DNA of 64,000 nucleotides from Nitrosopumilus sp. GTDB taxonomy: Archaea; Thermoproteota; Nitrososphaeria; Nitrososphaerales; Nitrosopumilaceae. Below are positions 43,503-48,165 of the stretch, piece by piece; the stretch's first letter is position 1; each line of letters starts with the position of its first letter. Below the pieces are notes generated by a model. It was not told where the DNA came from. It saw only the letters and a list, made by a program, of their open reading frames with translations, and did no database searches. Position numbers and translations under genes: made by a program. Where the stretch lies: assembly GCA_965197525.1 (NCBI GenBank), contig OZ240211.1, positions 1,376,001-1,440,000 of the forward strand, written 5' to 3'.

Positions 43503-44657
43503 GTGGAAAAAGTTTGCGTTCTTGGTGCCGGTAGTACCAAATATGGGAAATTAGAAGATAGTATAGGTGATATTACTACTCAAGCATCGGTTTTAGCCAT
43601 TGAAAGTGCTGGAATTGATCCAAAGGATATCAAAGCAGCCTATATCTCAAATGTTTTTGGGGTAGCCGATAAACAGGTTCACTTGGGCCCTGTATTGATG
43701 AGCAATCTTGGAATCTCAGATAAACCTTCTTTATCAATAGAATCCGCTTGTGGCAGCGGTTCTGTATCATTTAGAGAGGCATATGCTAATGTTGCAGCTG
43801 GGTTTTACGACTGTCTAGTTGTAACTGGTGTTGAAAAAGTCACTCATACAGGTACTGAATGGACCACAACCTACTTTGCATACTGTTCTGATTTTTTCTA
43901 CGAAGGCCAAGCTGGTGCATCATTTCCTGGCCTGTTTGCATCCATGGCACGAGCATATTTGACTGAATTTAACGCAACTGAAGAAGATTTTGCAAGAGTT
44001 GCGGTAAAAAATCATGAAAACGGAGTATTAAATTCCAAAGCACATCTACAAAAGAGGATCACCCTTGATGATGTAATGAACTCACCAGTTGTTGCTAGTC
44101 CCCTAAAACTTTATGATTGTTGTCCATTCTCTGATGGTGCAAGCTCTGTCATACTTTGTTCTGAAAAATTTGCAAAAGAACATGGCAATGACTATATCGA
44201 AGTAATTGGTTCAGGCAGAGGTGGTTCCCCTGCATCTCTGCAAGGACGTGATCATTTGACGACAATACCTAGTACAAAACTTGCTGCAAAAGCTGCATAC
44301 GACATGGCAGGTATTACTGCAAAAGATGTAGATTTTGCAGAAGTACACGACTGTTTTACTATTGCAGAGATTGTTGATACTGAAGATCTAGGATTCTTTG
44401 ATAAAGGACAGGGTGTTTCAGCTGTTCGTGAAGGCAGAACAAAACTAAATTCTGACATTTCTATTAATCCGTCTGGTGGTCTTAAATCTAAAGGACATCC
44501 AATTGGCGCTACTGGTGTTGGGCAAGTAGTGGAAGTATTTGATCAACTAACCGGAAGAGCTGGTAAAAGAACTGTTGACAATGCAAAAATTGGTTTAACC
44601 CATAACTTTGGTGCAACTGGTGCAAGTTGTGCTGTTCATTTATTCCAAAGTGTCTAA
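43503..44657 (+). CDS. Thiolase (archaeal acetyl-CoA acetyltransferase type)
   Basis: ESACGSG, KNHENG, AEVHDCFT, GGLKSKGHPIGATG. Confidence 0.92.
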   Translation: MEKVCVLGAGSTKYGKLEDSIGDITTQASVLAIESAGIDPKDIKAAYISNVFGVADKQVHLGPVLMSNLGISDKPSLSIESACGSGSVSFREAYANVAAGFYDCLVVTGVEKVTHTGTEWTTTYFAYCSDFFYEGQAGASFPGLFASMARAYLTEFNATEEDFARVAVKNHENGVLNSKAHLQKRITLDDVMNSPVVASPLKLYDCCPFSDGASSVILCSEKFAKEHGNDYIEVIGSGRGGSPASLQGRDHLTTIPSTKLAAKAAYDMAGITAKDVDFAEVHDCFTIAEIVDTEDLGFFDKGQGVSAVREGRTKLNSDISINPSGGLKSKGHPIGATGVGQVVEVFDQLTGRAGKRTVDNAKIGLTHNFGATGASCAVHLFQSV

Positions 44658-44658
44658 A

Positions 44659-45024
44659 ATGTCTGTTAAAGAACAATTTATTGAAAATGCTAGACAAGGC
44701 AAAGTATTGGCTCATAAATGCACTAGTTGTGAATTATTACATCTCTCTACGGTATATTATTGTCAAAAGTGCGGTAGTAGCAAGTTTGAAGATGCTATAT
44801 TAAACGGTGTAGGCTCTATTGCTACTTATACTATCATAACTGTAGCTCCTGACGGCTTTGCCAAGTATACACCATATGCCTTTGTTGTACTTGCATTAGA
44901 TGATACAGCTTTAAGAATCTCGGGATTTATGGCAGGAATTGCTACTCCTGATGACTTGCCTGTAGGAACTAGAGCTAAAATTACTGGTTTTGACGAGCGT
45001 GGTATTATAATTGAAAAACAGTAA
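44659..45024 (+). CDS. DUF35 Zn-ribbon/OB-fold thiolase partner
   Basis: C-x2-C..C-x2-C, G.IATYT, PYAF.V..LD; ATG 44659. Confidence 0.88.
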   Translation: MSVKEQFIENARQGKVLAHKCTSCELLHLSTVYYCQKCGSSKFEDAILNGVGSIATYTIITVAPDGFAKYTPYAFVVLALDDTALRISGFMAGIATPDDLPVGTRAKITGFDERGIIIEKQ

Positions 45025-45093
45025 AATAATTTACCCTAATTATTAAAAAAATCCAAAGTACATTTTAATTATTTTGTATATCTGATTATTTTT

Positions 45094-45255
45094 ATGTCAG
45101 TAGAAATTATTTGTGGAAAATGCGGTGAAAAGATACATAACATGAAGATGCTCAAATCTTTGAAGGATGTACTAAATACATCCGATGGCAAATGTCCATC
45201 ATGCGGCCAAAAACTTTCTACAGCTGAGTTTTCACTTGACGTTCAAGAAAACTAA
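45094..45255 (+). CDS. 53-aa CPxCG-type zinc-finger microprotein (not in ORF track)
   Basis: MSVEIICGKCGEKI...GKCPSCGQKL... Confidence 0.75.
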   Translation: MSVEIICGKCGEKIHNMKMLKSLKDVLNTSDGKCPSCGQKLSTAEFSLDVQEN

Positions 45256-45306
45256 TTTCAAAAACTAGTTTGAATGCATGTAAAAACATCCTCGTCGTAG
45301 TCTAGA

Positions 45307-45426
45307 TGATGGATCGACCCCTTGTGAAACATGTGCTTCGCGCACTTTAGTTTGAATGGGGCAATCCGAGCTGCTGCGTTCCTGTGCTTCGCGCACTGAT
45401 AGGTGATTGCAGCCTCCGATCCATCA
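45307..45426 (+). ncRNA. Candidate bridge RNA of the IS110 element
   Basis: 10-bp closing stem (45307-45316 / 45417-45426) enclosing two stem/internal-loop/hairpin domains with identical GTGC-TTCGC-GCAC caps; loop arms match the target and donor sites. Confidence 0.8.
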
Positions 45427-45440
45427 AAAACAATCCGCAA

Positions 45441-45448
45441 GGAGGTGA
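45441..45448 (+). promoter_or_regulatory. Shine-Dalgarno GGAGGTGA of the IS110 recombinase
   Basis: 8 nt upstream of ATG 45457. Confidence 0.7.
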
Positions 45449-45456
45449 TAAAAAGG

Positions 45457-46557
45457 ATGAGAAATATTGGAATAGACATTAGCAAGAGAAAATGCGTAGT
45501 ATGTGTAATGGATGACAAGGGAAGAATACTAGAGGAAACTACATATGACAATACGCTAGAAGATGCAAAAGAGTTTGCAGGCAGGATGAAAAGAGAGTAC
45601 GGCAGGAGAAGAGGACAGTGCCGTGCTGCATGCGAGACTACAGGAAACATGTGGCTCAAGACATTTGAGGCATTTGAGGAACACGACATACCAATCCAGC
45701 TTGCCAACACCTACAAGATGAAGATAATATCAGATACCGACGTCAAGACGGATCCCATCGATGCACGAAAGATTGCCAACATACTTCGTGTAGAGATGAT
45801 TCCCCAGTGTTATGTGGCGCCACCTGCGTTGCGTGATGCCAGAGAGCTGCTCAGGTACAGAATAAGCATGGTCCAGGCAAGGACTGCACTTATCAACTAT
45901 ACACACGGTCTGCTTGACAAGTACGATGTAAGACTGAACGTCTCAAACATGTACAGCAAAAAAGCCATCGGACTGCTCTCACATACAGAACTGAAAAGAC
46001 CAAACGACAACCTGATACTGAAGAACTGTGCCAAAAGAATTGCACATGTCACAGAAGAGATAACAAATGTCGAAACAGAGATAGACAAACAGGCCGCAGT
46101 AAACGATGATGCAAGACTGCTTATGAGCATGACAGGACTGGATGTATTTGCATCAATGCTTGTCGTATCAGAGATTGGGGACATATCAAGATTCAAAACC
46201 CCCGAACACTTGGTCTCATGGGCAGGCATGTGTCCCACCGTCTACCAATCAGGTGATGTAACACATCATGGCCGCATGAAAAAGGCAGCAAACGGAAGAA
46301 TAAACTGGATACTTATTCAAGCAGCAAACGTGGCAGCAAGACACGATGACAAGTTAAAGGAGTTCTATGAGAGATGCAAAAAAAGACATGGCGGCAAACA
46401 TGTGATTACAGTAACACATGTGGCAAACAAGATGATACGAATCATTTGGGCCATACTGACCTTCAGGGAACCGTACAAGTCACGCAATGTACAAAGATAT
46501 GGCAGAAAGATGAAGAGAATGAACAGTGTTCGACAGTCTATGCAGGGCACAGAATAG
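45457..46557 (+). CDS. IS110-family DEDD recombinase/transposase (366 aa)
   Basis: IGIDISK, ACETTG, KTDPIDA (D-E-D-D); C-terminal domain with TGLD, YQSG (Ser), KKAANGRINWIL; no frameshift. Confidence 0.95.
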   Translation: MRNIGIDISKRKCVVCVMDDKGRILEETTYDNTLEDAKEFAGRMKREYGRRRGQCRAACETTGNMWLKTFEAFEEHDIPIQLANTYKMKIISDTDVKTDPIDARKIANILRVEMIPQCYVAPPALRDARELLRYRISMVQARTALINYTHGLLDKYDVRLNVSNMYSKKAIGLLSHTELKRPNDNLILKNCAKRIAHVTEEITNVETEIDKQAAVNDDARLLMSMTGLDVFASMLVVSEIGDISRFKTPEHLVSWAGMCPTVYQSGDVTHHGRMKKAANGRINWILIQAANVAARHDDKLKEFYERCKKRHGGKHVITVTHVANKMIRIIWAILTFREPYKSRNVQRYGRKMKRMNSVRQSMQGTE

Positions 46558-46745
46558 CCAGCCAGTCACACATCCGTTGCAGTTTTGTTCCTAGCGATAG
46601 CTTTAAAAATATACACGTGTATTGTAGGCGTGGATCGAAGGCCAAATGGAAACCACGCGTGGCTGTGCCCGGATGTTTTAACATAGGTGTTTCATAACAT
46701 GCCACAGTTCTGACCCGATTGTATAGCATCTAGCCCATACTTTCA

Positions 46746-47816
46746 TCATACCATTGAGATCACCCTCTGAGTTATGTCTACGAACTGGTTGTAGCGCTGG
46801 ATCTTTAACGCTATCTCTTGAATAATGTTATCCATTGTTTTTGCCCTTACCGAACTTCCAAATATTCTCTTGAACGCAGAGAAGAATATCTCCACCTGCC
46901 ATCGGGAACCGTATTCCGCACGTTTTTTCCACTCGTTTTGGTTTTCCGCACGTTCCTTGATATCCATCTCATGGAATTTGGCAAGGCTTGTAGTGCCGCC
47001 ACCCAGCTGGTCAAGCGCTGCAATACCGCGTTCCCTGCTTATCCCCATTGCCTTGTATTCTGCATTGCGTCTTATCCTGATGATAGGTGTAATGCCGTAC
47101 TCTTTGCATATCTGAAAATTCTCCCTGCTGTCATATCCTGCATCTGCCTTGATCTTAATTTTAACATGATCTGGCGGTGGCCCAGTACCTGCAGCCATTA
47201 CTGTTGCGCGTCGTACATCTGGATCTATTCCCTTGTTCCTCAGTGCCTGTCTTATCAGGGGCTCGAACTGTGGGGAATCACCAATCTTTTCGTCAGTTAC
47301 CGTGAATCCAAGCACCCGCATGGTGTCCTGCTGTATCATGACACTGAGTCTTATGAAACCTGACTTGGTCTTTATCTTGTATTTGTATCGTATGTAGTCG
47401 CCTTTGGCAGACGGGGACATGCCTGTTCCATCTATGATGATCTGCAACACACTGTCTTTGCTCCTGACGGTTATGGTTCTGTCTGTAATGGATGTATCAA
47501 GACTCTTCGTTCTTCTCCACAGGGTAACGTGATCAGGTGCGTTTTCCTCACCCAGTGCAGCTATTGCCATTCCTTCCACACATCTGAATGCAATGCCCAG
47601 CTGTAGACGTATTCCGATTATGGCCATTATCAGGCACTCTGGATAGATGAACGGATGACCGTTTTTGCCTGCATTCATCCGTTTAAGTTCATCTACCATG
47701 TTGTCAGGAAGAACCAAATGTATCATCTTTCCTCGTTCCACATATCTTGCATCATTTTGCGCATGGCTCATGTGTAGCCGCGATTTTTGTTTGGTTCTGG
47801 TACCATCATGCGTCAT
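46746..47816 (-). CDS. IS5-family DDE transposase
   Basis: GHPFIYP, PDHVTLWRR, IIIDGTG (D), KADAGYD (D), RWQVEIFFSAFKRIFG (E). Confidence 0.9.
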   Translation of the reverse strand: MTHDGTRTKQKSRLHMSHAQNDARYVERGKMIHLVLPDNMVDELKRMNAGKNGHPFIYPECLIMAIIGIRLQLGIAFRCVEGMAIAALGEENAPDHVTLWRRTKSLDTSITDRTITVRSKDSVLQIIIDGTGMSPSAKGDYIRYKYKIKTKSGFIRLSVMIQQDTMRVLGFTVTDEKIGDSPQFEPLIRQALRNKGIDPDVRRATVMAAGTGPPPDHVKIKIKADAGYDSRENFQICKEYGITPIIRIRRNAEYKAMGISRERGIAALDQLGGGTTSLAKFHEMDIKERAENQNEWKKRAEYGSRWQVEIFFSAFKRIFGSSVRAKTMDNIIQEIALKIQRYNQFVDITQRVISMV

Positions 47817-48165
47817 ACCCGTCTACCTCCAGAACGCAGCACATAACTAATTTCGATTAACTTGCTGGAGAAAAGAAACTCACACGTAACATTAAATTGT
47901 CTTCCTGTGAAATATGGTTGGTGCGGATATCCTTTCATTTGTTGTGATCTGAAAGGATATTACGCTCCAGCTCTTTAAATGCGAAAGTTAGTTGCAGTTA
48001 ATCTGCAACTTGAATATCTATGACACTGTTTGTGGCAGGTTATGAAACAAACTATCAAAAACAAAACTAATAAAACAATTTTTCTATTTTTCAAAACAAT
48101 TATTTAAAAATATTTGAAATTATCCAGTCACAAGTCTTATTTACTCCTTTCTTTCAGAAACAACA

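Follow-up and report, generated by a model that had tools for sequence, protein, structure and literature searches.

Introduction

To our knowledge, bridge (seek) RNAs have been demonstrated for bacterial elements only. In the RNA of IS621, the 5' arm of a loop forms base pairs with the bottom DNA strand and the 3' arm with the top one (Durrant et al. 2024, PMC11208160). The IS1111 family is distinguished from the IS110 family by the order of the two guides, the complement of the top strand coming first in IS1111 (Siddiquee et al. 2024, PMC11187229). IS1111 elements carry subterminal inverted repeats 11-13 bp long, extended by 7 bp at the left end and by 3 bp at the right, and exceptions to the layout of the family are ISMtsp17 and, with non-coding DNA on both sides, ISHvo10/ISAcp5, whose RNAs were not analysed there (PMC11187229). 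Two members of the family, IS4321 and IS5075, insert in the terminal repeats that bound transposons of the Tn21 family (Partridge & Hall 2003, as cited in PMC11208160). As for archaea, 662 IS110 recombinases have been counted (Vaysset et al. 2024), and about 181,000 IS110-adjacent sequences from bacteria and archaea were clustered in a 2026 preprint. Our literature search found no description of the RNAs of archaeal IS110 recombinases or of the RNA family reported here, which the clustering of that preprint may well contain.

The DNA analysed here is a stretch of 64,000 nucleotides from Nitrosopumilus sp. (the window). An earlier note, made from its letters, had proposed that an IS110-family bridge RNA lies at 45307-45426, with a first loop that encodes the insertion site and a second loop that encodes the joined ends of the element. 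Vacant targets and the covariation both of the fold and of all four loop arms bear this proposal out. We conclude that the IS110-family recombinase is very probably served by a bridge (seek) RNA, about 120 nt long and encoded directly upstream of it at positions 45307-45426.

Results

The element, its recombinase and its copies

The host genome is a single contig of 2.21 Mb that encodes an archaeal AmoA, in agreement with the ammonia-oxidising archaeon supposed in the earlier note. It holds four full copies of the IS110-family element (the window copy A and copies B, C and D) with 96-100% nucleotide identity, intact genes and different sites, which indicates recent movement of the element. The bounds of the window copy (Table 1) are given by the same ends in all four copies, and its excision in silico yields the vacant target that is present elsewhere. 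The left junction of all four is TG followed by AATGCATG, and the right junction is ACATAGG-TG in three of them and ACATAGG-CG in copy D. The window copy runs from ...CTAGTT-TG followed by AATGCATG... on the left to ...ACATAGG-TG followed by TTTCATAA on the right, with TG at both junctions and a single TG at the vacant site. There are no terminal inverted repeats at its very ends, where only the short core is repeated at both junctions. Its non-coding ends measure 184 nt on the left and 130 nt on the right (46558-46687). Thirteen of the 14 bases of the left subterminal repeat match the reverse complement of the right one; the extensions outside the repeats, TG+AATGC (7 bp, left) and AGG (3 bp, right), are the same in homologues, in which the repeat is conserved and covaries between the two ends.

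Table 1 Features of the IS110-family element and of its insertion site (positions in the window)
Feature	Position	Strand	Remarks
IS5-like 8-bp duplication TCAAAAAC	45258-45265 and directly after 48054		intact; nested span 45258-48062
Left half of target, TAGTT-TG	45266-45272	.	first 7 nt of IS5-like terminal inverted repeat
TG core copies of IS110-family element	left 45271-45272, right 46688-46689
IS110-family element, complete	45273-46689	+	1,417 bp with one TG core copy counted
Left subterminal inverted repeat ATGTAAAAACATCC	45278-45291	.	7 bp from left junction including TG core
Bridge RNA gene (predicted)	45307-45426	+	120 nt; fold, compensatory changes and covariance model
P1 closing stem, 10 bp	45307-45316 TGATGGATCG / 45417-45426 CGATCCATCA	+
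P2	CCCC 45318-45321 / GGGG 45358-45361	+
Target loop 5' arm (right-target guide) GTGAAACA	45324-45331	+	complement of TG + 6 nt of right flank
Cap P3	45332-45346	+	15-nt hairpin TGTGCTTCGCGCACT
Target loop 3' arm (left-target guide) TAGTT+TG	45348-45354	+	same sense as left flank + core; pairs with bottom strand
P4	45368-45374 / 45409-45416, C45414 bulged	+	includes GCTGC 45370-45374 / GCAGC 45409-45413
Donor loop 5' arm TGCGTTC	45375-45381	+	complement of (G)AATGCA, first 6 nt of left end, one G.T wobble
Cap P5	45383-45397	+	15-nt hairpin TGTGCTTCGCGCACT, same as P3
Donor loop 3' arm ATAGG+TG	45399-45405	+	same sense as last 5 nt of right end + core
Shine-Dalgarno-like AAGGAGGTGA	45439-45448		precedes recombinase gene
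Recombinase gene	45457-46557	+	366 aa from this ATG
Promoter-like motif CTAGCGATAGC-TTTAAAAATATA	46591-46613	.	right non-coding end, about 75 nt from right end
Right subterminal inverted repeat GGATGTTTTAACAT	46671-46684	.	then 3-bp extension AGG + TG core
Rest of IS5-like host element	46690-48054	-	DDE transposase 46746-47816 (-), Pfam DDE_Tnp_1
Other IS5-like terminal repeat	48040-48054		intact vacant 15-nt target, inverted; genome position 1424040, - strand, exact match

The recombinase matches the Pfam families DEDD_Tnp_IS110 (PF01548, 3.4e-24) and Transposase_20 (PF02371, 5.9e-24), both above the curated cut-offs. When it was aligned with the solved IS621 and ISCro4 proteins, which are distant (E about 1e-8), the catalytic motifs IGID, ExTG, KTDxxDA and Y(Q/E)SG were found to be kept, comprising the catalytic D, E, D and D and the C-terminal serine. 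Relatives occur in Cenarchaeum, Nitrosopumilus and Nitrososphaerales genomes, with homologues in 31 of the 300 genomes of the same family that were searched. The best annotated protein matches are haloarchaeal and include ISHvo10 (31-33% identity, E 1e-42 to 1e-44); identity to named bacterial elements is at most 28%, and assignment to a subgroup by protein similarity to named bacterial insertion sequences was discarded, all of them being too distant. The motif AAGGAGGTGA is near-invariant in all homologues, 8-20 nt 5' of the recombinase start, and is a strikingly strong Shine-Dalgarno-like motif. Three more IS110-family recombinase genes of other subfamilies lie in the genome (C1:1841869, 1261958 and 866091; 25-29% identity).

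In the right non-coding end, the block GCTAGCGTTAGCTATAAA is kept in about 8 of 14 aligned elements. The motif there consists of GCTAGCG(A/T)TAGC followed by TATAAA/TTTAAAAATATA and resembles an archaeal TATA box with a small upstream palindrome. Transcription from this motif, were it to fire outward, would cross the circle junction and run into the bridge RNA.

The genome also holds a 57%-identical paralogue, copy E (C1:1456962-1458108), and about ten decayed solo left-end remnants without a recombinase, listed at C1:1812662 (-), 474707, 1892604, 1832217, 2186883, 1712320, 161833, 2177465 and 352375. In copy E, the linker that joins the two RNA modules contains an insertion of 13 G and AGAGGAGGAGG; target arms and flanks of this copy disagree, its right end was not found, and it is probably decayed. 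The remnant at C1:1812662 stops directly after its own left-target guide TTTAGTTTGAATG, a string that equals a left junction, and this break at the guide hints at recombination at the guide-coding DNA itself. In two elements of Cenarchaeum sp. (L029 and L030, OZ242221.1), about 50 nt 5' of the RNA, the left end lacks its usual 8 initial nucleotides (AACACATG), in whose place stands ATTCATTTG, which matches the left-target guide TTCATTTG of the same elements; their right junctions are normal.

Insertion into the terminal repeat of an IS5-like element

The window copy lies within the end of an IS5-like element, and the uninterrupted sequence in other copies of the latter reads ...AAACTAGTT-TG-TTTCATAACATGCC.... 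The target reconstructed in the earlier note is real, since the genome contains three vacant, exact copies of the 15-mer TAGTTTGTTTCATAA, all of them at IS5-like termini. The IS5-like element keeps its 8-bp duplication and was therefore the earlier arrival; the insertion of the IS110-family element, 7 nt inside the terminal repeat, came later. The terminal inverted repeat of an IS5-like element appears to be the target for which the window copy is programmed, and the copy is found in such a repeat. The locus is an example of an insertion sequence that disables another one by targeting the latter's terminal repeat.

Fold and strand of the RNA

The stems, hairpins and loop arms described in the earlier note were recovered letter for letter, including its longer versions of two arms, TTGTGAAACA (45322-45331) and ATAGGTGA (45399-45406). 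Together they form a closing stem around two domains, each composed of a stem, an internal loop and a hairpin. The two caps, which the earlier note had described as identical twins, are so in the window copy; in copies B, C and D one loop base differs between them. For the + strand, RNAfold predicted the closing stem together with both basal stems and both caps, at a minimum free energy of -45.4 kcal/mol. The z score was -2.4 for the + strand, with 4 of 200 shuffles as good, and -2.9 for the - strand. As both strands fold equally well, folding of the single sequence is uninformative on strand. We regard the single-sequence fold alone as weak evidence and the comparative evidence as decisive.

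The upstream regions of the recombinase homologues proved readily alignable. Covariation of the fold was assessed in an alignment of 24 sequences from these regions, the comparison over homologous left ends that the earlier note had suggested as a check. The proposed structure was paired in 87.9% of the cells, compared with 36-45% when partners were slid by 1-3 columns. Both sides were altered in 18 of the 29 pairs, including 9 of the 10 pairs of the closing stem, and none of 500 shuffles reached the covariation level of the observed alignment. Stem pairs comprised 91 G.U against 38 A.C, an excess that favours a + strand RNA. In addition, the wobbles at the core positions of the guides occur in the + RNA sense only, so that both observations side with the + strand RNA of the earlier note.

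A covariance model, R1, was built from the 24-sequence alignment and run on the loci of a pattern scan of the whole collection. It found 56 further copies, all of them in Nitrososphaeria. About 25 bacterial matches of the pattern scan were set aside, as their number is about the chance expectation for 21 fixed bases and none matches R1. An Rfam scan of window positions 44000-48000 with E up to 1 returned no relevant family and one irrelevant weak match. A likeness to C/D boxes or K-turns (UGAUGG at the 5' end and CUGA in the donor arm) was also discarded, since these letters are not conserved in homologues. The sole RNA-library data were low-depth contigs of a relative in a sponge metatranscriptome, which show neither strand nor ends and may stem from DNA carry-over.

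Guides of the target loop

Loop arms were compared with the DNA on either side of each element. The conserved left-end motif served to place left ends, and either the subterminal repeat or the right-end motif to place right ends; the target arms played no part in this, and the guide arms were read from alignment columns. A naive inverted-repeat search for element ends gave spurious pairs and was abandoned. The strict end search, in which TG was required at both ends, delimited only about one third of the elements; the right-flank test therefore comprises 24 distinct pairs and the right-end test 16.

The 3' arm of the target loop matched positions -1 to -5 of its own left flank at 0.96, 0.91, 0.91, 0.89 and 0.69, compared with about 0.3 for the flanks of other elements (45 distinct guides). 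None of 200,000 permutations reached the observed value, and the match fell to background (0.27) at position -6. The identity of this arm with left flank plus core, noticed earlier in the window copy, thus extends to the family. The reverse complement of the 5' arm matched positions +3 to +8 of its own right flank at 0.62-0.88 and those of other elements at 0.24-0.39 (24 elements), again with none of 200,000 permutations reaching the observed value and with background from +9. For this arm the earlier note had claimed ten positions. Eight of them, the core and six flanking bases, stand, whereas the two extra 5' bases (45322-45323) find no support at family level. The target site read by the RNA would accordingly comprise 13 bp, N5-TG-N6.

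The four copies in the genome illustrate the change of guides. Copies A and B have identical loops, and C and D differ in the target loop only. The 3' arm TAGTTTG matches left flank plus core at 7/7 positions in copies A and B, the 3' arm TAACTTTG of copy C matches its own left flank plus core at 8/8, and the 5' arm TTGGGAAACA of copy D is the exact complement of its right flank TTTCCCAA. The right-flank match is poor in copies B (5/10) and C (7/10), and copy D has CG instead of TG as its right core. For IS621, 'half-match' insertions have been reported (bioRxiv 10.64898/2026.08.31.748434), and the partial matches of copies B and C may be of a similar kind. A relative in the sponge metatranscriptome, about 93% identical, has a changed 3' arm, TTTGATTG, that matches its own flank CTTGATTG at 7/8 positions (TTGATTG). 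Further target-loop variants, such as TGGGGAAACA / TAACTTTG, were present at high depth in DNA runs, so that the element family is guide-polymorphic within the sampled populations. As to a handshake-like extension, in which AAU of the target 3' arm would correspond to the initial bases of the left end, the informative variants are divided, with three in agreement and five not.

Guides of the donor loop

The 5' arm of the donor loop covaried with positions 1-6 of the left end (33 guide/end pairs; 0 of 100,000 permutations) and follows variant left ends such as AAAGC, TACACA, GAAGC and ACTTTA. The earlier note had extended this pairing to the core. The first 6 nt of the left end are upheld as its partner, whereas the core is usually unpaired and pairing with its G, present in 18% of the elements, is not conserved. 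The 3' arm agreed with the core and the 5 nt that precede it at the right end (16 pairs; 0 of 100,000 permutations), and the variants ATAGA, ATGGA, ACAGG and ATGAG each match their own right end; for part of an older set, the right end had been placed by the donor 3' arm itself, which is circular for that arm only. The further A after the core, which the earlier note had included in this arm, is unsupported at family level: a match beyond the core to the right flank or to the left end was found in about 5 of 12 elements only and was dropped. With these results, all four arms of the two loops follow their DNA partners across the family; for the target loop this covers other insertion sites, which is where the earlier note had proposed to look. 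The donor site would be N5-TG-N6 across the circle junction. That junction, ATAGG-TG-AATGC, was not seen in the contigs of three runs; contigs drop rare forms.

The donor arms vary little across the family, with few independent variants. This feature would suit a seekRNA-like system in which the RNA guides the choice of target only and the recombinase recognises the element ends through the subterminal repeats, the second loop not base-pairing with DNA. The 14-bp subterminal repeat is moreover conserved and covarying, as in IS1111 elements, for which end recognition by the protein is discussed. Against this, the informative variants of both donor arms follow their own ends, as the permutations for each arm attest, and the donor-paired bases lie outside the subterminal repeat and adjoin the core, where the donor loop of IS621 pairs. 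We consider guidance of the target alone improbable. It is more improbable still that the structure belongs to the recombinase mRNA as an ordinary 5' leader for control of translation or stability, or is a hairpin signal at the DNA level, with incidental flank matches: its position 31 nt 5' of the start codon, on the same strand and just before the Shine-Dalgarno-like motif, and the equal folding of both single strands would suit such a role, but it leaves unexplained why 45 different loops each match 5 nt of their own flank with a sharp stop at -6 and why the other arm matches the opposite strand of the other flank, and the G.U pairs favour a + strand RNA.

Discussion

The comparison across the family supplies the recognition code of a bridge RNA that addresses both the target and the element's joined ends, and the steps from transcription to catalysis would be those of IS621, ISEc11 and ISEc21. 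By analogy with these elements, we infer that the RNA is transcribed and bound by the recombinase and that it guides recombination by way of a circular intermediate. The likeliest mechanism would be the published one of the family with a geometry of the IS1111 type, namely an RNA-guided synapsis of a circular intermediate with the target and strand exchange at TG by the DEDD/Ser recombinase. The + strand RNA would fold with its 10-bp closing stem around two modules of stem, internal loop and hairpin. The arms of the target loop would together read the 13-bp site, and the joined ends of the excised circle would be read likewise by AUAGG-UG (3' arm) and UGCGUU (5' arm) of the second loop. The recombinase, held on both loops, would then exchange strands at the shared TG core, and the circle would be inserted without duplication other than that of the core. 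To judge from its natural reprogramming, the system may be functional and programmable, as the earlier note described it.

A wider reading, which we put forward tentatively and think rather doubtful, joins the ammonia oxidisers and haloarchaea in a distinct, ISHvo10-like archaeal class that combines ends and guide order of the IS1111 type with a closing-stem RNA in the left end. In this class, a conserved and complete archaeal promoter in the right end might fire outward, so that strong expression of RNA and recombinase would await circularisation.

In this family archaea provide a well-delimited example, and dozens of natural reprogramming events set the effective guide lengths at 5+2 and 2+6 nt for the target and at 5+2 and 6 nt for the donor. 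We know of no genetic system so far for the host organisms. If the element is active, it would be a native, naturally reprogrammable recombinase in them, and a 366-aa protein with an RNA of about 120 nt, native to ammonia-oxidising archaea, would make a compact candidate tool. If the reading is true, the proposal that Nop5-C/D-box guide ribonucleoproteins descend from IS110 recombinases would moreover gain a point of reference in archaea.

Among known systems, the element resembles IS621 and ISCro4 in that the RNA lies 5' of a DEDD and Ser recombinase, that the first loop serves the target and the second the donor, and that in each loop one arm reads the bottom and one the top strand, overlapping in a 2-nt core; the proteins are distantly related, as the alignment above indicates. 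It differs from IS621 in the reversed order of the arms. In IS621, moreover, the subterminal repeats measure 2-3 bp and the core is CT, as against 14 bp and TG here, and the RNA of 177 nt has an extra 5' hairpin and apparently no closing stem (none is described in PMC11208160). The inverted arm polarity that the earlier note had pointed out is real; it is not new, as it equals the published order of the IS1111 family (PMC11187229).

With the IS1111 elements ISEc11, ISKpn4 and ISPa11 the element shares an RNA in which the complement of the top strand lies 5' of the match to the bottom strand, long subterminal repeats and their asymmetric extensions (left 7 bp, right 3 bp). A range of 7-17 bp, taken here for the subterminal inverted repeats of the IS1111 group, includes the 14 bp of the window element. 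In contrast, nearly all IS1111 members carry the RNA downstream of the recombinase, whereas it lies upstream in the window element, in the position of the IS110 group; IS1111 members also have a short left and a long right end, as opposed to the 184 nt on the left and 130 nt on the right here. The arrangement is thus intermediate between the IS110 and IS1111 groups and bears on the movement of the RNA gene between element ends. As far as the literature cited above describes them, IS4321 and IS5075 share the preference for the terminal inverted repeat of another transposable element; they differ in their bacterial hosts, in the 38-bp Tn21 repeats that they target and in their downstream RNA.

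Likeness to the nearest named relative, ISHvo10 of Haloferax volcanii, and to an element of Halanaeroarchaeum was judged by eye, in these two elements. In both, an RNA with a closing stem lies upstream; its target loop has a 3' arm identical to the left flank and a 5' arm that complements the right flank, and the 3' arm of its donor loop, CATAGGTG, is identical to the right end ...CATAGG-TG. Subterminal repeats are present in these haloarchaeal elements, the 7/3 extensions having been checked in that of Halanaeroarchaeum. Their hosts are Halobacteria, and their RNAs are diverged, scoring at most 12 bits with model R1. We regard the window element as a natural example of the mechanism known from bacteria since 2024, with an unusual mixture of IS110-type and IS1111-type features and the mechanism unchanged.
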